A stretch of DNA of 64,000 bases, taken from assembly GCA_963664705.1 (NCBI GenBank), contig OY761556.1, positions 864,001 to 928,000 of the forward strand, read 5' to 3'. Every line of letters starts with the position of its first letter. The first letter of the stretch is position 1. This document shows positions 41,753-61,994 of the stretch, piece by piece. Made by a program: the position numbers and the translations under genes. Source of the stretch: Acidobacteriota bacterium. Its GTDB lineage: Bacteria; Acidobacteriota; UBA6911. The notes under the pieces were generated by a model, which saw only the letters and a program-made list of their open reading frames with translations, did not search any database and was not told the DNA's origin.

Positions 41753-42004
41753 TTTTGCCACTCTAAGGGATGATGTCGTGTTTTGCCAGCAATACCTTCA
41801 TGGTCGCATAGAAATGGCGATACCTCCGCTGCCCCGAAGATTGACTTTGCTGATCATTCAGGATACTTTCGGGCCATTTGCACCGAGGCGGCGGTTTTCA
41901 TCCTGTTGTGTCCATGATGGAGAAGGAAGCACTCGGATCATAATCATTTTTGAAAGGGATTTGTTTCGAAGAGCGGTTTGTTCAGAACCTTCGTGCGTCC
42001 GCTT

Positions 42005-43669
42005 ATGGTTATACAATCGTCCCGGTGGCGTAAAAGCGCCTGCATTTTGTCTGCGCTCGCGTTTTTTCTGCTTTGCATCAATGCGGCATTGCTTTCCTGG
42101 CTCGGCGGCTACGACGTCCGTTTGGGGAATATGCACATCTCCGCCCACGGATTGTTCAAGCCTCTGCTGATGCTGAATGGAAGCTTTATCCTGATGCTAA
42201 TGGCTTGGGGGAGACTCGGGCGCAGCCTTTGTCCGCGGGATGATGTGCCCTCTATGTCCCTCCGGGATTGGGCGTGGATAGGAAGTGCCATTGTGGCGCT
42301 TGTATCCTCGCTTTACCTGTCTTCCGCGCTAATCAATATAAATCATCCGGACTGGACACACCGCCATATCAGTTCGGGGATTCACTCGCTTAGTGATGCC
42401 TGGCAACTATTCATCGGCAAACAGGCCGATGGATTTTGCCGCCCGCTAACCTTTGTCTCTCTCTGGGTAGACTATCGGATGTTTGGGTCATGGTATCCGG
42501 GGTATCACATCCAGAGCATTGTATTGCACATTCTGAATTCCCTGTTGGTTGTGACTCTTGCCGGAACCATGAGATTTGGGCGAATTCCATCCATGTGGGC
42601 GGGACTGCTTTTTGCCGCGACGTCCGTCGGATTTGAGCCTGTTCTGTGGCCTGCGGCCAGGTTTGATTTATTGGCCGCAGCGTTCACTCTTGCCGCATTT
42701 ATCTTTGCTATCAGGTATTTTCGTGATCCGGCCTTATGGACATGGGAACTGGTGCTGTCCAATGGGTTTTATGCGGCTGGGATTTTGAGCAAAGAAAGCA
42801 GCTATGCGCTCCCTTTCCTAGTGTTGGCGGTTGTGGGCTTCTATCCTGTTTGGTCTTTGCTGCGGCCGAGGTTTTTCAAGTGGCTGGCGTATTTTGCCTG
42901 TTCCACGGTTATTAGTGCGCTTGCCGTGTGTGCCCGGATAGCAATTTATGGAAATCTGGGCGGGTATTCAGGCACGACAAATTGGGCGTCCCCTCATTTT
43001 GTGCCCGGATTCAGGACGATTGGGTCTCTGTTGAGAGTTCTGCCCCTTTCGATTTTGGGTGTCAACACAACTGCTTTTGCGCCGCGCTGGGCGACCATCG
43101 GGCTGATCCTCTTTATCATCTTTCTTGTTGTCGCCGCCCTCATTTGTCGCGGCAATTTTCAGCTTCAAGAGTATTTGCTGGCGGGTTGGACCCTGATTGC
43201 TGCAATCCCGGTTATGAATATTGTCTCCTGGATCGGCTCTTCCATGCAACACAGTCGATACCTATACCTGCCCGCGGTTTTCGCCGCGCTGATGATGGCA
43301 TCTGTTCTCAATCGGGGGCGGTTCTCCAGCCTCTTGCTGACGGGATACCTTCTGCTGAGTGCAGCTGGAGTACTGACCAATATTCAGGGCTATAAGAGGG
43401 CGCTTGCCAGAACCGAAATTATCGCTGAATCGGTGCGTATGGAATGGCTAAGGAATCCAGAAGCGCGCAGGATCTGCATTGTGGGCCTTCCAGAACATGT
43501 CGATGGCGTTTTTTATTTTGGGTCGGAATTGATCGAGAGAGTAAAGGGTAAAGTCCCGCGGGCAGAGATCGTGCGAGTAGAATCCAATCAGGTTGGGACT
43601 GAACCAAAATCCACATCCATTTACAGGTGGAGCCCGGCGAAGCATGACTTGGTTCGTATCGGGTCATAG
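42005..43669 (+). CDS. Polytopic GT-C-like membrane glycosyltransferase
   Basis: RPL, YH..S..LH..N, EPV.W..AR.D, SKE and RYLYLP motifs. Start codon uncertain. Confidence 0.8.
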   Translation: MVIQSSRWRKSACILSALAFFLLCINAALLSWLGGYDVRLGNMHISAHGLFKPLLMLNGSFILMLMAWGRLGRSLCPRDDVPSMSLRDWAWIGSAIVALVSSLYLSSALININHPDWTHRHISSGIHSLSDAWQLFIGKQADGFCRPLTFVSLWVDYRMFGSWYPGYHIQSIVLHILNSLLVVTLAGTMRFGRIPSMWAGLLFAATSVGFEPVLWPAARFDLLAAAFTLAAFIFAIRYFRDPALWTWELVLSNGFYAAGILSKESSYALPFLVLAVVGFYPVWSLLRPRFFKWLAYFACSTVISALAVCARIAIYGNLGGYSGTTNWASPHFVPGFRTIGSLLRVLPLSILGVNTTAFAPRWATIGLILFIIFLVVAALICRGNFQLQEYLLAGWTLIAAIPVMNIVSWIGSSMQHSRYLYLPAVFAALMMASVLNRGRFSSLLLTGYLLLSAAGVLTNIQGYKRALARTEIIAESVRMEWLRNPEARRICIVGLPEHVDGVFYFGSELIERVKGKVPRAEIVRVESNQVGTEPKSTSIYRWSPAKHDLVRIGS

Positions 43670-44343: not shown

Positions 44344-44419
44344 AGCAGCCCTTCTATCGCAGGCTGCTTCTTTTTGTCAAACTGAAAGCTGTTCCGCCCA
44401 TCATTGGTTCATTTGCACA

Positions 44420-44470
44420 ATTCGCGAAACTCGTGGCATACCTCTCTGATCTGCCAGGAATTTCGCGAAT
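44420..44470. repeat. Degenerate REP-like inverted repeat (ATTCGCGAAA.TCGTGGCA)
   Basis: attcgcgaaactcgtggca / tgccaggaatttcgcgaat. Confidence 0.7.
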
Positions 44471-44500
44471 ATTGCGCTTCATCGCCTAATGGCAAACAAA

Positions 44501-45697
44501 CTAGTTTCTGAGCAGGAAGACATCCCAAGCCCATTTATTGATACTCGAATTTGCCTTGGTTTGCACCTTAGCCCGATACCGGAGTTGATTCCCGTACTCA
44601 TCCACTTTTTTGGATAACTTGTAGTCCAGGCTGATGCTCACTATCCCGGATGCATCCAGGCTGAATAATTCATCCGGTTCCGATACTCCGTTGTGATTTC
44701 TGTCGCGCCACAACTGGAGTTCTGTATAGATCGGGTCCTCGCTATCAATGACGCCATTGCCGTTGCCTCCCTTTTCGATTGTGTCATAGACAGCCAGGGC
44801 CAGGAATCCGTTTGGTTCCGATCCCTGCGGCGGATCCGGCTGGGGTGTGTAATTGCCAAATAGTTCAGTGCCATCGTCGACCATGCCGTTATGGTTTCGA
44901 TCCAGGCAAAGCCAGGCATCGTCCGTGTTTACTTTGGTCCATGAAAGCTGTTCCCTGGTTCCGTCAGAGTCGAGATCAAAGAGGACTCCATCATCTCTGG
45001 ATGTGAGCTCCAGGACTCCCTTTCCCATGCCGATCAATATCGGGGAATTAATGCAACGAGGCTCGAGAAAATCCATCGACCCGTTGCAGTTTGCATCATA
45101 TCCCGGATAGCAGACAGGAGGAGCGCCGGGATAAATAAACGGGACGTAATCGTTGCAGTCATCGCCTCCGGCACTTATCGCCCGATGCCCATCTTGATCC
45201 ATATCGCTTGACGGGCAGCCGTTGCAGGTGTGAGTGATGCCGATATAGCGCAGCGGCCCGGTGGCTCCGGTGCAATAGACTGCCGACACATACGACATGA
45301 TGGAACACCACTGCATAATAACGCCGGTTCCATTATCCGCCGCCGCAGAATAGTAGTTTCTGCTGGTCATGACGGGAGAATAAAAGTCTGGCCAGCAATC
45401 CCTGTGATACCAGGGCGCTCCTATCCAGTCTTTCATGCAGCTCGCCGCGCAGGCAGATCGCCCATAGGCAGTCAGCCAGGCACTTTGGAGTTGCCCATCA
45501 GGCCACAAAATCGTGTGCTGCGTTGTTTTGCGGATTACATCGATACAAAATTCCCCGGGTGAAGCGCCACCACAAGGGTTATACAGTTCTACATTGTGGA
45601 CTGTCGAGACCGGCACGCAATTCGTGCAGTCCTGACCATTCAATGGCGTAACACATGCCGCCAAGACCAAAAGGGATACAAGAAGTTTCGCGTTCAT
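44501..45697 (-). CDS. Secreted Cys-rich protein with a C-terminal FrpC-like Ca2+-binding self-processing module homolog
   Basis: Signal peptide, 16 Cys in residues 1-215, DxDxDG..DCND motif, then SP..., FDLD.DG, DD..L.LD.N.NG..D.G.ELFG, GF.ALA..D and L.LW.D.N.NG.S...EL. Confidence 0.8.
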   Translation of the reverse strand: MNAKLLVSLLVLAACVTPLNGQDCTNCVPVSTVHNVELYNPCGGASPGEFCIDVIRKTTQHTILWPDGQLQSAWLTAYGRSACAASCMKDWIGAPWYHRDCWPDFYSPVMTSRNYYSAAADNGTGVIMQWCSIMSYVSAVYCTGATGPLRYIGITHTCNGCPSSDMDQDGHRAISAGGDDCNDYVPFIYPGAPPVCYPGYDANCNGSMDFLEPRCINSPILIGMGKGVLELTSRDDGVLFDLDSDGTREQLSWTKVNTDDAWLCLDRNHNGMVDDGTELFGNYTPQPDPPQGSEPNGFLALAVYDTIEKGGNGNGVIDSEDPIYTELQLWRDRNHNGVSEPDELFSLDASGIVSISLDYKLSKKVDEYGNQLRYRAKVQTKANSSINKWAWDVFLLRN

Positions 45698-46503
45698 TAG
45701 CGACCTCCCTGTGTCTTGTCGAGCAATGAAAGCGCCCGCGTGTTTTGCGCGTCATACTGCTCCTGCAAAATAGATAGGATTGCGGCTCTTGAGGCATGCT
45801 CGTCGTTGGCCGATATGACAGGAAATTGCTTCACCGCTTCAATCTGGTGCATGGCCTTTTCCCTGGCGGTGGAAACTCCCCACAACACCGCGTCCCGGGA
45901 TTTCTCCCCGGATTTACGGAGAGAATCCAGCTGGATTCCCGGCACGATGGTGCCGGCCAATGACATGAATGCATCTTCGGCGGAGAGGGGCAATTTTCCT
46001 AATTTCTGCAGCAGAGCGTTCATGCTGGCATCATCCTGGGTTGAACGTCGACTCCGGAGTATCTCCTTTACACGAGAGCTCTCGAGAATTTGTCCCAGCC
46101 GATGACATTGCATCACTTCCAGTTGTGTCTGATCTCCTTTGCCGCTGCCATCATCAAAAATTGCCGCAGAAATCTCGACCTTTCGGTCTGCGGCATGTTC
46201 GTGGGATATTGTCAGGTTAAAGGATTGTCCTGGAGCGAGGCCGGAAGGCTCGGCATTGAGCCAGTCCTGATAATAGTGCGCATCCGCCTTGAAGGACAGC
46301 GCGACAGCCGTGATCACGTCTGTCGATTTGTTTTTAAAGGATAGCGTCCACATTGGACCGCTCTCATCAATGGATGCCAATTCGATAGCCTGGGTCCGAT
46401 CTGTTGTCCGCCATGAGGACAAATCATCTTTGGCTCCTGCCAGCAAATCTAGCGAGCAGAGGATCAGACAGGCTGTGACACAAAACGAAAACCTGGTGAG
46501 CAT
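45697..46503 (-). CDS. Secreted hypothetical protein (beta-sandwich plus helical domain), coupled to the downstream gene
   Basis: 268-aa ORF with signal peptide and AAGGAG RBS. Its TAA overlaps the next ATG (TAATG). Confidence 0.75.
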   Translation of the reverse strand: MLTRFSFCVTACLILCSLDLLAGAKDDLSSWRTTDRTQAIELASIDESGPMWTLSFKNKSTDVITAVALSFKADAHYYQDWLNAEPSGLAPGQSFNLTISHEHAADRKVEISAAIFDDGSGKGDQTQLEVMQCHRLGQILESSRVKEILRSRRSTQDDASMNALLQKLGKLPLSAEDAFMSLAGTIVPGIQLDSLRKSGEKSRDAVLWGVSTAREKAMHQIEAVKQFPVISANDEHASRAAILSILQEQYDAQNTRALSLLDKTQGGR

Positions 46504-46702
46504 ATTTCGTCTCCTTCCGAGTTGATGGATTAAAACCTGAGGGATGCGCCAGTTCCGGCGATTACTGGGTCCTGCGCGGATATTGTTTCTGCCGGCAGAG
46601 ACTTATTTCAGGAAATCTGAAGTGCGGCCGCCCAATCAATAGATCGATGGTTGCCGTTGCCAACTGAATCCGCAAACGGTCATAATGAACTTGAGGTGGA
46701 CA

Positions 46703-56990: not shown

Positions 56991-59900
56991 ATGCGACCTC
57001 GAATCAGTAGTGTCCGCCTCAAAGTTTTTTTCCCCATCGTAGCCTTGGTTCTGTTGACGACCGAACTGGCCGGCATTTCCTTCCCCGCGCGGAGGGAGTC
57101 AAAGGGGACTGATGTTTCACGGTCGCTACAGCGGATGGTGATACCAGGGACTCAGGATCTACAGTTGATTGTGGAATTATCCGATCCGTCGGTTCTGGAC
57201 CGGTTGCAGGGGACGGAGACTTCCGGATCCACGCGAAGTGCTCTGTCCCTGAGTTTGCGTGGACGCCGCGTGGATTTCTCCACGGCTCAGGCGCGGACGC
57301 ATCGCCAGACAATCGAGCGTGGACAGGAGTCCATGAAGGCGCGGATTGCCGCTATCCCCAACGTCCAGGTGCAGGGAACCACCAGTACCATCATGAACAG
57401 CATAATTATACGCGTGCCCGCTGTTCAATATGACGCGGTTCGAAAGCTGCCCGGCGTAAAAAAGGTCTACTTTTCCTTGCCGCGGAAGCCATTGCTTGAC
57501 ACTGCCGCCACCTTGCAAAATGCGCAAACCATGTGGACGCTTGCCGGCGGCAAAAGCAGCACTGGACAGGGCGTCAAAATAGGGATCCTTGACAGCGGTA
57601 TCGATATCTCGAACCCAATGTTCAGCGGTACCGGGATGACAGCTCCGGCCGGATTTCCCAAGTATTCCCCTTCCTCAAGCGCAGCCTTTACAAATGCGAA
57701 AGTGATTGTTGCCAGAAGCTATTATCAACAGTATCTGGGTTCGTCCGGTGTGTTTACAGCTGAGGATGAACTGGGACACGGCACTTTTGTCGCTGCGTGC
57801 GCGGCGGGCGTACAGGTTGCCGCTCCTCGAGCCACCATTTCCGGCATGGCTCCGGGTGCCTACCTGGGTGTTTATAAGATTCTCTCGACCGGCTCCACTT
57901 CAACGGCAGCCGAGGTGGCCGCCCTGGATGATGCCGTGAGCGACGGCATGGATGTCGTCAATATGAGCATCGGCGCGCTGGACAACCTGCCTCCGGATGA
58001 AATAGCGGAATACGCCGCGATCACAAAAGCCATCCAGGCCGGCGTGGTCATGACTGTATCTGCCGGGAACGACGGGTCCTCGACCCATACGATCAGCAGT
58101 CCCGCAACGATTGCGGATGTCATCGCTGTCGGTTCGGTTTCAAATTCACGCGACTTCCTGGCCGTTGTCCGCACCAATTCTCCCAGCCTCAGCACGATTG
58201 CCTATGCCGCTTCGGCCGATGGCATCCAGGTCTCTACCGACCAGGCGCTGAAAAAAATAGTGGATGTAGCTTCCCTCGATGGAGACGGATTGGGCTGCTC
58301 CACCTTCCCCTCCGCCAGTCTTTCCAACTCCATCGCATTGATTGAGCGGGGCGTCTGCCTCTTTTCCGACAAAGTAGGGAATGCGGCCCAAGCCGGTGCC
58401 GTGGGAGTCGTCGTTTATAACAATGCCGCTAACGGAACCATTTCGATGAGCGGCCTGGGGACGGCCACAATTCCTGCGGTCATGATTTCCAATTCGGACG
58501 GCCTTGCGCTTAAGCAGTATGTGGATGCAAACGCCAGTACGGCAACGGCGGGAATTGGCAGCGCCACCAATCTGAGTGCGGTCGATGTTCCGGCGCGCAT
58601 CATTTCTTCCTTCAGCTCCGTCGGCCCAGGGCCGGATTTCAGCATTAAGCCTGACCTGGTAGCCGTTGGTGAATATGTTTACTCGGCAACCGAAAAGACG
58701 AGAACCTCCGGTGAAATGTACGACTCTTCGGGATTCACGACAGAAAACGGGACAAGCTTCTCCTCTCCGATGGTTGCCGGGGCCGCGGCGGGGGTGATAC
58801 AAAAATATCCCTCACTCGGAGTTCTGGCGATCAAATCTCTCCTGACAACCACCGCCAGCAGGAATTTGACTGCCGATGGAACCAACCCTCCCAGCGTGCT
58901 TCAAGCGGGAAGCGGGCTCCTCGATATGGGAGCTGCTATTCAGGGGACTGCGGTCTTTTATCCGACAAACCTGAATTTTGGAGTGCACTCCTATAGCGGA
59001 ACCCTGTCGCTGCCTCTCAAGTTGACGGTGCAGAACATTTCGTCCGGCTCTGATCAGTTTGCGTTTGGTTTTGAACCCCTTGTTTCGGGACCCGCAATCA
59101 GTTTCAGTTCCCCCGGTACCGGCTCCGTGGCATCGGGAGCCAGTGCGGACGTAACCGTAACCTTGCAGTCCACGGCGCCTGCGACCGGCGGTTTTCAGGG
59201 ATTTGTCACGATCAAAAGTGCATCTACATCTTTTGTGTATAGAATCCCGTATTGGGCGGGGCTGTATGTGCCGGATGCCACGCGCATTCTGGAAGTATCG
59301 CAGAGCGGATCCGGAGCCTACACAACCCTGGCCGATGCCGTGGCCGCTGCGCAGCCCGGCAATGTGATCCAGATCAGCGACAATTCCACCTATTCCATTG
59401 AAAGCCCGGGATTGTCCATTATCACAAACAGCCAGGGTCTTCCTTTGCACGGGCTGGTCATTCGAGCTGCCTCCGGAAAGACTCCGATCATTCAGGCGCC
59501 GAATCTTTCCACCGGCATCCAGATAGTCGGATTGAAAAATGTTCTTCTGCAGGGACTGCAGGTGTCCGGAGGGTATACCGGAATTGAGCTGGTGCAGCCC
59601 TCCACCAGCATCCCGATGTCGGCAACCATTGACCAGTGTACGGTCCTCAATGCATCGGGTAATTCAGCTGCGGCCAATATCTTCATCGATGGCGGCGGGA
59701 TCGTGGATATTACCAAGTCCACGATAAGCGGTTCTTCCGGGTATGGCATTGCCGCGGGTTTATATGCGGATAACACGCAGCTGACGATTACCGGCTCCAC
59801 CGTGCAAAACAACAGCTATGATGGGCTCGATGCCTATGTCTCCGATGTCTACATCGCCAATTCAACCCTTAGGGCCAATGGCGGGACCGGAGCCTTCCTC

Positions 59901-61994
59901 TCCGATTGCACCGGAACCATCTCGGGAAGTACTTTTTCGCAAAATCGGGACACCTCGAGCCTGTATGGTGACGGGATCCAGATTCAGGATGGGAATGTTA
60001 CCCTGCAGGGCAATCTGTTTGACTCCAATGATGAAGCCGGGATCGCACTGGTTTCCGCCAATGCAACGGGCGGCTCAAAGGCCAGAATTACCGGCAATGT
60101 CATGCAGTCGAATGGCTATTATGGCATCTATTCAGACCCGGCGCTTTCAGTGACGGCGGATGGCAATTTGATCAAGGACAATGCCGGAGGCGTGGATCTG
60201 TATTCGACCGCCGATGCGCTCCTTACTAACAACATCATCGTGCGATCCACAAGCGGCTTCCTCGGCGATGGAGTTCTGGTCGAAGGAAGCAGCACGGCCA
60301 GGCTCATCAACAATACCGTTTATGGCAACAAACTGTATGGAGTTCATCAGTTGCTCGGAACCACTTCCGTGGCAAATTCCATCATCAGTGCGAATAGCGC
60401 CGGGAATATTCAAGGAGTCAATTCAGGCTCCATTCAATCCTCGATTACGGCGGCGGATCCCAAATTTGTAAGCGCGAGTTCGGACAACTTTTCGCTGTCC
60501 GCGGGATCACCCGCCATCGATGCCGGCAGCAATACGGTAGCCGGCTTACCCTTCCTTGATTTTCTTGGCCAGGTGCGTATTGCCTCCGCCAGCACTTTCC
60601 CGGGGCAGGGGACGGTTGATGCCGGCGCCGTGGAATCCAGTTCAGCCTACCCGCTGATCTATCCTCTTCTCGTCAGCGGCAATAACACGACTCTTGGCTC
60701 GTCATTCACAACGGGCATTGCATTTCTCAATCCCACCAGTACGAGTCAGGATTTTGCTTTTGCCGGATTTGATCCGACGGGAGGCAAACTTGCCGGTACG
60801 CAAAATCCCTATACCCGCTCCCTGGATCCTGAAGCCCAGATTCCAATCCTGGATTGGCAGATGTTCGGATACAGTTCTGCCGACACGGCGCGTGGAGGAG
60901 TCTTGGGTGCCACGGATGTTCCGACTGCCGGTTTTTTGGTGTATATGGATTCCGAGGCCAAGAAATTTGCGACGGGAGTGAATGCGGCAACGCGTCTTTC
61001 CAGCGATATGGTCTTCATGCGGCACCAGACAGGATCGGGCAAAACGAGCAGCTATGTCCTCTTTAATCCGGGCGTGACCACTGCCAATATCACTGCAAAA
61101 CTGCATGGCAGCGATGGGACTACTGTTTCCACGCAAGCCGTCTCTGTCGCGGCCAAGGGGCAGACCATCGTTCAATTCAATTCAACAACATCCACCGGCT
61201 ACGTGACCATTGCTTCCGACCGGCCAATATCCGGCCTGGAACTGGTAGGTAGCGCAAATATCATGGCGGCTCTGGGCGGATTTTCTCCTGGAACCCAGGC
61301 TCGTCTATTCTTCCCGCATTTTGCAGTGGGGGGGCACTATTCGACCACTGTGGGGATCATCAATACCAATGCTTCCCTGACGGTCAATTTGAATTTGAGT
61401 GCCTATGATCCGCTTGGCAACCTGATCGGCAGCGTTGATGGACTGTCACTGCTGCCAGGAGAACAAATGCTGAAAACGGTAACGGAGTTGTTCGGAATTT
61501 CGGATGCGAGTGCACTCCAGACCGGGTATCTGGTGGCCCAGAGCGATCAAGCGGGGATCATGGGCTTCACCAACTATATCTATGGCGACGGGATTGCCGC
61601 CTCGGATGCAATGATTCCGGCGGATTCGGTTCCAAGCCGGAGATTGCTTTTCTCGCAAATAGCCAATGGGGTGCCCGCCGGGAATGGCGTGCCTTATCAG
61701 ACCGGGATCGCATTGCTGAATCCGTACGGAACCAGCGTCAGTTTTACGATGACTGTTTACGATGGCGCAGGCGCCATCCGATACCAGGGGACGCAAACGA
61801 TCGGTCCGCACGAGAAGATGTCCCGGATTCTGGTTTACCCGGATGCAGGGGTCGGCTTCTTTACGGGAGACCTCGTATTGGGGAACGGCCATGTTGAAGT
61901 GACATCGGATTACGGACTGCTGGGGCTGGAGGTTTTCTTCACCGAAGATCTTTCTCAGATGGTAAGCGTTCCAGCGCAGACTATAGAAGAGTAG
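56991..61994 (+). CDS. Large secreted S8 (Vpr-like) serine protease with PA, beta-helix and C-terminal repeat domains
   Basis: ILDSG, GHGT and GTSFSSP triad; PA motif IERG.C.F..K; N/S/G-rich beta-helix; SPAIDAG..D.GA.E; repeated TGIA..NP. Confidence 0.92.
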   Translation: MRPRISSVRLKVFFPIVALVLLTTELAGISFPARRESKGTDVSRSLQRMVIPGTQDLQLIVELSDPSVLDRLQGTETSGSTRSALSLSLRGRRVDFSTAQARTHRQTIERGQESMKARIAAIPNVQVQGTTSTIMNSIIIRVPAVQYDAVRKLPGVKKVYFSLPRKPLLDTAATLQNAQTMWTLAGGKSSTGQGVKIGILDSGIDISNPMFSGTGMTAPAGFPKYSPSSSAAFTNAKVIVARSYYQQYLGSSGVFTAEDELGHGTFVAACAAGVQVAAPRATISGMAPGAYLGVYKILSTGSTSTAAEVAALDDAVSDGMDVVNMSIGALDNLPPDEIAEYAAITKAIQAGVVMTVSAGNDGSSTHTISSPATIADVIAVGSVSNSRDFLAVVRTNSPSLSTIAYAASADGIQVSTDQALKKIVDVASLDGDGLGCSTFPSASLSNSIALIERGVCLFSDKVGNAAQAGAVGVVVYNNAANGTISMSGLGTATIPAVMISNSDGLALKQYVDANASTATAGIGSATNLSAVDVPARIISSFSSVGPGPDFSIKPDLVAVGEYVYSATEKTRTSGEMYDSSGFTTENGTSFSSPMVAGAAAGVIQKYPSLGVLAIKSLLTTTASRNLTADGTNPPSVLQAGSGLLDMGAAIQGTAVFYPTNLNFGVHSYSGTLSLPLKLTVQNISSGSDQFAFGFEPLVSGPAISFSSPGTGSVASGASADVTVTLQSTAPATGGFQGFVTIKSASTSFVYRIPYWAGLYVPDATRILEVSQSGSGAYTTLADAVAAAQPGNVIQISDNSTYSIESPGLSIITNSQGLPLHGLVIRAASGKTPIIQAPNLSTGIQIVGLKNVLLQGLQVSGGYTGIELVQPSTSIPMSATIDQCTVLNASGNSAAANIFIDGGGIVDITKSTISGSSGYGIAAGLYADNTQLTITGSTVQNNSYDGLDAYVSDVYIANSTLRANGGTGAFLSDCTGTISGSTFSQNRDTSSLYGDGIQIQDGNVTLQGNLFDSNDEAGIALVSANATGGSKARITGNVMQSNGYYGIYSDPALSVTADGNLIKDNAGGVDLYSTADALLTNNIIVRSTSGFLGDGVLVEGSSTARLINNTVYGNKLYGVHQLLGTTSVANSIISANSAGNIQGVNSGSIQSSITAADPKFVSASSDNFSLSAGSPAIDAGSNTVAGLPFLDFLGQVRIASASTFPGQGTVDAGAVESSSAYPLIYPLLVSGNNTTLGSSFTTGIAFLNPTSTSQDFAFAGFDPTGGKLAGTQNPYTRSLDPEAQIPILDWQMFGYSSADTARGGVLGATDVPTAGFLVYMDSEAKKFATGVNAATRLSSDMVFMRHQTGSGKTSSYVLFNPGVTTANITAKLHGSDGTTVSTQAVSVAAKGQTIVQFNSTTSTGYVTIASDRPISGLELVGSANIMAALGGFSPGTQARLFFPHFAVGGHYSTTVGIINTNASLTVNLNLSAYDPLGNLIGSVDGLSLLPGEQMLKTVTELFGISDASALQTGYLVAQSDQAGIMGFTNYIYGDGIAASDAMIPADSVPSRRLLFSQIANGVPAGNGVPYQTGIALLNPYGTSVSFTMTVYDGAGAIRYQGTQTIGPHEKMSRILVYPDAGVGFFTGDLVLGNGHVEVTSDYGLLGLEVFFTEDLSQMVSVPAQTIEE

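Follow-up and report, generated by a model that had tools for sequence, protein, structure and literature searches.

A 64,000-nucleotide stretch of an Acidobacteriota genome (contig OY761556.1, positions 864,001 to 928,000; hereafter the window) was found to carry, on its reverse strand, a two-gene unit made up of a partner gene for the 268-residue protein P0002 (45697..46503), defined by open reading frame (ORF) analysis, homologs and a predicted model, followed by a gene for the 398-residue protein P0001 (44501..45697), defined by ORF analysis. Judged by sequence homology and by the fold of its predicted model, the C-terminal domain of P0001 (residues 219-398) is a genuine self-processing module (SPM) belonging to the type known from the Neisseria meningitidis protein FrpC. 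It has a Ser, residue 218, in place of the reactive Asp. Autoprocessing triggered by Ca2+ via the hydroxyl at this junction is in our view the best reading, and we give it about an even chance.

The C-terminal domain of P0001

The match to the FrpC SPM, which the initial annotation of this DNA had made by eye, proved to be real. Residues 219-398 (44504..45043), which run to the C-terminus, matched the FrpC SPM structures 6SJW and 6SJX with phmmer (E 1.1e-19), and a family profile matched 6SJW (E 1.7e-35) with the profile Pro falling on the first residue of the structure, Pro415. The AlphaFold model aligned with 6SJW over 158 residues (Z 19.6, root-mean-square deviation 3.0 Å), model residues 219-398 lying on chain residues 1-171, and the Foldseek comparison that the annotation had proposed also paired the predicted model with 6SJW (E 9.7e-13, TM 0.77 by target). 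The precomputed Pfam 38.1 label for the domain is PF26745 (SPM).

P0001 belongs to the SPM domain family and not to the clip-and-link RTX (repeats in toxin) proteins. As the annotation had stated, there are no RTX repeats, and no GGxGxD hexamer was found in the protein. No C-terminal type I secretion region was found; the chain ends with the SPM, with nothing behind it, and the N-terminus is hydrophobic, in support of the N-terminal signal that had been claimed. FrpC, by contrast, is over 1,000 residues long.

With the SPMs of N. meningitidis FrpC and FrpA and of Actinobacillus ApxIVA (6SJW, 6SJX; PMC7078468), the domain has in common its homology, fold and starting Pro, together with a Trp pair, three EF-hand-like Ca loops, an Asp at the position of FrpC D579 and a variable N-terminal passenger. 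Residues W253, D266, E278, N282, D305, W330, D332 and E343 of P0001 correspond to FrpC W451, D462, E474, D478, D499, W519, D521 and E532, the roles of the FrpC residues being those given in PMC7078468. P219, the Trp pair (W253/W330) and the three loops (D266/E278, D305 and D332/E343), which are predicted to bind Ca, are all kept. The transient fifth Ca site of FrpC (D478 and D579) is represented by N282 and D392, the latter (44522..44524) placed in register by the structural alignment to 6SJW; in FrpC, D478N only slows processing (PMC7078468).

The fourth Ca site, formed in FrpC by D419, D421 and D423 of the first Ca loop with D456, is lost in P0001, which reads ILIGMGKG here and keeps D260. 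The orthologs largely keep the loop, with an Asp at position 223 in at least 90% of them, where P0001 has Gly at both 223 and 227. The two Gly residues would fit P0001 being a decaying copy, its SPM inactivated by loss of the first Ca loop in a family that may otherwise work, as would the presence of the pair in just two of 51 genomes of the bacterial family and the broken cassettes seen elsewhere (L003/L005, L011, L081, L196). We regard this as very improbable; neither ORF is broken or shortened, every other conserved SPM residue is kept, and the sequence is backed by other assemblies, positions 44400-46650 being identical, with zero differences, in contigs from two sequencing runs of one sample, from which this DNA may itself have come.

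The junction residue across the SPM family

Fold and profile alignments place Ser218-Pro219, part of the junction Asn217-Ser218-Pro219 (45041..45049), on Asp414-Pro415 of FrpC. Searches at E<=1e-5 gave 4,552 homologous proteins of 218-697 residues among 6,211 candidates, and a further 297 longer homologs; junctions and architectures were counted in the best 120 of each, 240 proteins in total. The junction was S-P in 202 of these, T-P in 34, C-P in two and S-S in two, so the conservation of Ser-Pro or Thr-Pro that the annotation had asked about was seen in 236 of 240. The SPM lies at the protein end (median of 2 residues behind it), a Cys is present no more than 6 residues before the junction in 212 of 238, and three or more GGxGxD hexamers were counted by pattern in 21 of 240. 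A crude hydropathy rule recognised a hydrophobic N-terminus in 183 of the 225 homologs starting with Met. In the Acidobacterial type the protein finishes with one more conserved strand, RWAWDVFL, at its C-terminus.

A pooled set, skewed towards relatives of two queries and not a census, contained 462 distinct SPMs whose start could be seen, after 12 partial hits had been dropped. Pro was present in 459, and the residue in front of it was S (312), D (68), T (65), C (11) or, once each, K, E and L; 388 of the 391 non-Asp junctions were thus S, T or C. Ala, Gly and Asn, each one base change away from a Ser codon, were found at none of the 459 junctions, as against 19% of the X-Pro dipeptides within 120 residues upstream. 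Ser at the junction is encoded by codons of both families (TCN 85, AGY 26). The position before the junction residue is unrestricted (Gly 87, Tyr 46, Pro 45 and Ser 43 of 459). The Trp pair, the Pro and the three Ca loops are conserved in all junction types, and the residues of the port around the FrpC scissile bond are conserved across the family.

Ser had been taken in the annotation for a replacement peculiar to this system, which does not hold, as Ser, Thr and Cys dominate among the thousands of homologs and are also frequent in RTX-type proteins. A search with a Ser-type RTX query gave 84 distinct SPMs in loci of plasmid, viral and metagenome origin, and their junction residue was D in 55, S in 21, T in 4, C in 2 and K and L in one each, giving Ser, Thr or Cys in 27 of 84 RTX-type SPM proteins. 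Many such proteins with a Ser-, Thr- or Cys-Pro SPM were seen (L084, L087, L088, L103-L112, L119-L129), so the reactive Asp cannot be taken for granted when an RTX protein carries an SPM. Eight plasmid loci came from other phyla; seven had S-P or T-P, and the eighth had one K-P and one D-P. Cys forms arise separately, including in Cys-poor RTX proteins (L107, L111), and a swap of S to C within a homologous linker distinguishes L231 from L244.

Two further groups of Asp-Pro SPMs were noted. Viral contigs (L094:1912-3528, L097-L101) contain ORFs of about 540-600 residues with a C-terminal Asp-Pro SPM and no RTX repeats; the L094 ORF, from a phage contig, begins with a lipoprotein-like signal and had no Pfam match. 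Cys-free proteins with a short terminal Asp-Pro SPM of 154-159 residues (L216, L218, L219, L220, L222) form a separate clade.

On an unrooted tree of 166 SPM rows, built with the junction columns removed, at least nine changes between Asp and Ser/Thr/Cys were required. A single clade of Asp/Glu forms was rejected by the approximately unbiased test (p 0.00016), which used 42 rows picked by hand after the first tree had been seen and a group defined by the residue itself. One Asp/Glu clade, from genome G220, sits among Ser/Thr forms and shares the layout of the P0001 locus, with partner gene, 4-base overlap, signal, Cys-rich cargo (11-12 Cys) and SPM. Its members (L194:5260-6360, L195:4309-5325, L207) have Asp-Pro, or in one case Glu-Pro; the D478 position is occupied by His and the D579 position by Val, and several broken, repeated cassettes were found nearby. 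Across the family, by plain count, 307 of 310 Ser/Thr/Cys forms had the Asp at the D579 position, as did 33 of 62 Asp forms, and the D478 position tended to be Asn with Ser forms and Asp with Asp forms.

The junction residue reads best as a nucleophile, because it is only ever Ser, Thr, Cys or Asp apart from three single cases, it lies at the FrpC scissile site, and the Asp at the D579 position is fixed only beside a hydroxyl. The P0001 precursor would leave the cytoplasm by Sec, and its SPM, by homology to FrpC, would fold on binding Ca2+ outside the cytoplasm and use the Ser218 hydroxyl to cut itself, so that a disulfide-rich cargo would be released or transferred, with P0002 as its predicted cargo-specific helper. 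The chemistry we favour is an N-to-O acyl shift at Asn217-Ser218, which would yield an ester, or a thioester in the Cys forms, to be hydrolysed or handed to a nucleophile with Asp392 as a possible helper. Intein, Hedgehog, GAIN and SEA domains offer a precedent for such a shift. Direct attack on a strained Ser-Pro bond would be the geometric analogue of the FrpC reaction, and would need a four-membered lactone.

Intein/Hint, Hedgehog, GAIN, SEA and Ntn hydrolase domains likewise are modules that begin at a Ser, Thr or Cys behind a variable passenger, and serve here as a working analogy. The fold of the SPM is that of 6SJW, whereas none of the Hint, GAIN, SEA or Ntn folds was listed in the fold searches, and the following Pro and Ca2+-dependent folding are features of the SPM and not of the domains that undergo Ser/Thr/Cys cis-autoproteolysis.

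Several observations weigh against autoprocessing at Ser218. Cys at the junction (2.4%) is rarer than before Pro in the background (7.4%). Pro directly precedes the junction residue in 45 of 459 SPMs, and a Pro before the nucleophile is, in inteins, poor for an N-to-O shift. P0001 itself lacks the first Ca loop, the pooled samples are skewed as described, and the covariation at the Asp392 position carries no correction for independence. Covariation of the junction residue (Asp or Ser/Thr/Cys) with the D478 position, which was also tried, was not significant, with only 2 supported independent pairs. Two cargo families mostly stand without a partner (cargo 0 in 0 of 7 loci with one, cargo 2 in 1 of 14), and 11 of the 16 matches to the P0002 profile outside its own genome had no SPM gene downstream, so the partner is not obligatory. 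Asn and Asp could also be absent because a non-cleaving domain avoids unwanted cutting of a strained bond, the hydroxyl being retained to hydrogen-bond with Asp392. Finally, D414A abolishes FrpC cleavage, the Asp side chain being needed (PMC7846742), and since Ser218 stands at the D414 position the known anhydride chemistry cannot run in P0001.

This dependence of FrpC on Asp fits an SPM of the Ser/Thr/Cys type that does not cleave at all. It would then be a Ca2+-binding C-terminal domain that serves many secreted cargoes as a switch for folding, a signal for sorting or a tether to the surface; its hydroxyl would cap the first strand or form a hydrogen bond with Asp392, and Asp-Pro clip-and-link activity would have arisen from it several times. 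We put this possibility somewhat below even. The conserved terminal strand at the protein end of the Acidobacterial type, the freedom of the residue before Ser (which is Pro in one case out of ten) and the scarcity of Cys agree with it, and the repeated appearance of Asp on unrooted trees fits repeated gain equally well. Ser, Thr and Asp are typical turn-capping residues. A pure capping role would, however, be expected to admit Asn, and Asn, like Gly and Ala, is absent from the junction, whereas Cys is found there 11 times, in several clades. The conservation of the Pro and of the residues lining the port at the FrpC scissile bond, and the finding of Asp-Pro in the same gene layout in G220, also speak against a domain that never cleaves.

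The set of Ser, Thr and Cys would also fit an acceptor for glycosylation or acylation by another enzyme, with the SPM presenting the residue and no self-cleavage; S-linked glycosylation exists, and a PMT-like membrane protein is encoded 0.8 kb away (41978-43669, recognised by eye, with no Pfam match). Against this, no modifying enzyme was found as the directly upstream gene, which was the gene examined, in 118 loci, a narrow port shields the corresponding residue of FrpC (PMC7078468), and Asp replaces Ser, Thr or Cys within a like layout in G220. We consider such an acceptor role improbable.

Autoprocessing via the junction hydroxyl leads to a broader proposal, which we hold tentatively, at somewhat short of even. 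The SPM fold would harbour a second Ca2+-triggered autoprocessing chemistry (a Ser/Thr ester or Cys thioester in place of an aspartic anhydride) and serve in Acidobacteriota, at up to 11 copies per genome, as a detachable C-terminal module of general use that releases or covalently attaches swappable cargoes with their own helper genes, the Asp-Pro form of FrpC being one of several offshoots.

Cargoes and partner genes

The signal peptide of P0001 (residues 1 to about 21, 45635..45697; putative cleavage site placed from an alignment of 17 sequences) is likely of the Sec/signal peptidase I type, with export by Sec. A LAAC lipobox at Cys15 had been suggested and the pattern is present in P0001, but it was found in 0 of 15 full-length close orthologs and in 6 of 225 Met-starting homologs, and the idea that P0001 is a lipoprotein was rejected. 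P0001 has 17 Cys, made up of C15 in the signal region, C264 in the SPM and 15 between residues 24 and 215, the last being the 15 further Cys of the annotation. Residues 24-161 (45215..45628) form a Cys-rich cargo domain that is all-beta in the predicted model and was delimited by the model, sequence clusters and conservation. It belongs to a cargo family (cargo 1) of 53 sequences in which C27, C83, C101, C131, C142 and C158 are at least 90% conserved. In the whole-model fold search, in which the cargo was not run as a separate domain, nothing above Z 3.6 was found for it. It has neither a family nor a fold match, and nothing favours a toxin over an adhesin or signal role.

Between cargo and SPM lies a linker (residues 165-209, 45071..45205) with a MopE-type Cys/Asp repeat, identified with Pfam and phmmer. 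The DxDxDG..DCND motif seen earlier is this repeat, PF11617 (Cu-binding_MopE), found at residues 180-209 with 30.9 bits against the curated cut-off of 27 (E 3e-7); the linker repeat also matched Methylococcus MopE (2VOV) with phmmer (E 6e-4). The likeness to MopE is confined to this one repeat, which in P0001 is a mere linker element, is present in part of the SPM family and has putative metal binding.

The annotation had proposed a test for hypervariable Cys-rich N-termini. Cys-rich N-termini vary across the family but are not hypervariable within the close subfamily, where the cargo is conserved and whole-protein identity is 50-72% in the alignment of 17. N-terminal parts of the homologs fall into many unrelated clusters (65, 53, 36, 23, 16 and fewer sequences), and the cargoes include Cys-rich proteins of no known type, subtilisins with PA14/FN3 domains and M10/M12/M43/M64-like peptidases. 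Three tandem cargo cassettes (L011:371-4585) share a 138-nt Cys-rich linker repeat that is 90-93% identical, and only the last is fused to an SPM; this single case suggests that cargoes may be swapped by recombination.

The gene directly upstream was examined for 118 cargo-SPM genes, and an upstream ORF was present in 88. Of 7 loci with cargo 1, 5 had a member of the P0002 family, its own locus included, and a sixth had a profile match, in agreement with the conserved upstream partner that had been predicted. Cargo 3 was found with a different partner family, up1, in 16 of 16 loci, cargo 8 with a gene for a SurA-N/DsbA-like thioredoxin in 8 of 8 (L047, L062, L063, L069, L076, L225, L236, L243), and cargoes 9 and 12 with their own partners in 5 of 5 and 4 of 4. 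Because partner families change with the cargo while the SPM stays the same, it is probably the cargo that the partner serves, as a chaperone, inhibitor or receptor. Cargo 2 starts with a partner-like immunoglobulin (Ig) domain, a weak match (hhalign probability 60%).

The predicted model of P0002 (pLDDT 92.7) has a predicted signal peptide at about residues 1-24, an Ig-like beta-sandwich at 32-123 and a helical bundle at 125-265. Close homologs of P0002 number 13, and its unnamed family comprises 349 clusters at 50% identity; in the Atlas, 30 unnamed Acidobacteriota clusters were found at 0.9 or more. It had no Pfam or NCBIfam match above cut-off, and a fold search gave nothing at E<=0.001, the best hit (Z 8.0) being generic. 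A weak profile match to the archaeal pilin 8FK7 (E 0.007) was not used as evidence. The up1 family (alignment A7; L019, L023, L028 and others), which is unrelated to that of P0002, comprises unnamed exported proteins of 250 residues encoded upstream of metallopeptidase-like cargoes, of which they are candidate cognate inhibitors. A resemblance of up1 to TIMP/NTR domains, noticed by eye, had no support in Pfam or PDB sequences. A 148-residue, Cys-rich, exported-looking protein without an SPM is encoded behind a partner-family gene (L188:2527-2970); it was considered as an SPM-less cargo and rejected, being unmatched by the cargo 1 profile.

The closest known arrangement is the frpDC operon, in which the lipoprotein FrpD binds residues 1-414 of FrpC (PMC5233953). 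Both are two-gene units with an exported partner beside an SPM protein, the partner being specific for the passenger, by binding in the case of FrpD and presumptively in that of P0002. P0002 differs in having no conserved lipobox and in its predicted Ig-like sandwich and helical bundle, FrpD was not listed among its fold or sequence matches, and in contrast to frpDC the SPM class has several unrelated partner families.

Genomic setting and significance

The ORFs and their coordinates, with N217-S218-P219 at 45049-45041, are as the annotation described. The two genes overlap in a TAATG (45695..45699, reverse strand), in which the P0002 stop and the P0001 start have one base in common, and this arrangement may couple their translation. 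Promoter and terminator scans at the locus gave chance-level results only, and no repeats were found in the window between 43000 and 48000. The pair is single copy in its genome and has a GNAT gene on one side and one for glyoxalase II on the other (Pfam). In none of the 11 loci of the same genus that had 1.5-kb flanks was the pair next to the glyoxalase gene. The partner was found in two of 51 genomes of the bacterial family, including its own, and an SPM match in one of 24 other genomes of the genus, so the pair is an accessory unit. A pair of the same type recurs in a genome of the same genus (G352), with a 5-base gap between the genes. Two more partner and cargo pairs, P0005/P0130 and P0012/P0133, are suggested only, by contigs that agree in length. 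Elsewhere in the window, on the forward strand, are the gene at 41978-43669, for a 563-residue multi-pass membrane protein that resembles PMT-type glycosyltransferases by eye and has no significant Pfam match, and a gene for a 1,667-residue subtilase with a PA insert and beta-helix domains (56991-61994).

Named homologs were mostly from Acidobacteriota, and the named genomes mostly from Pyrinomonadaceae; 76 of 78 loci had Acidobacteriota titles and two were from Heliobacteriaceae. An SPM match was present in 33 of 301 genomes of the phylum, with as many as 11 in a single genome, and the five named genomes tested each had 2-6 copies. Phage records gave 1 weak match.

The SPM has been described in print as an Asp-Pro module, exclusive to RTX proteins (PMC7078468), and serves as a protein ligation tool (NeissLock). 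At the level of abstracts, the SPM papers found dealt solely with Asp-Pro RTX proteins and engineering, and none with Ser/Thr/Cys forms, PF26745 or Acidobacteriota, while published homolog alignments may include non-Asp forms. The sequences gathered here make up a very large class of SPMs that have neither the Asp nor RTX repeats. If its members cleave, a calcium-inducible ester or thioester chemistry would join the short list of self-processing reactions and could be useful for protein labelling, and a secretome system would be defined for a phylum that is abundant but poorly understood. Should they not cleave, the class would show a role of the fold without clip-and-link, and annotation as an SPM would not imply anhydride chemistry.

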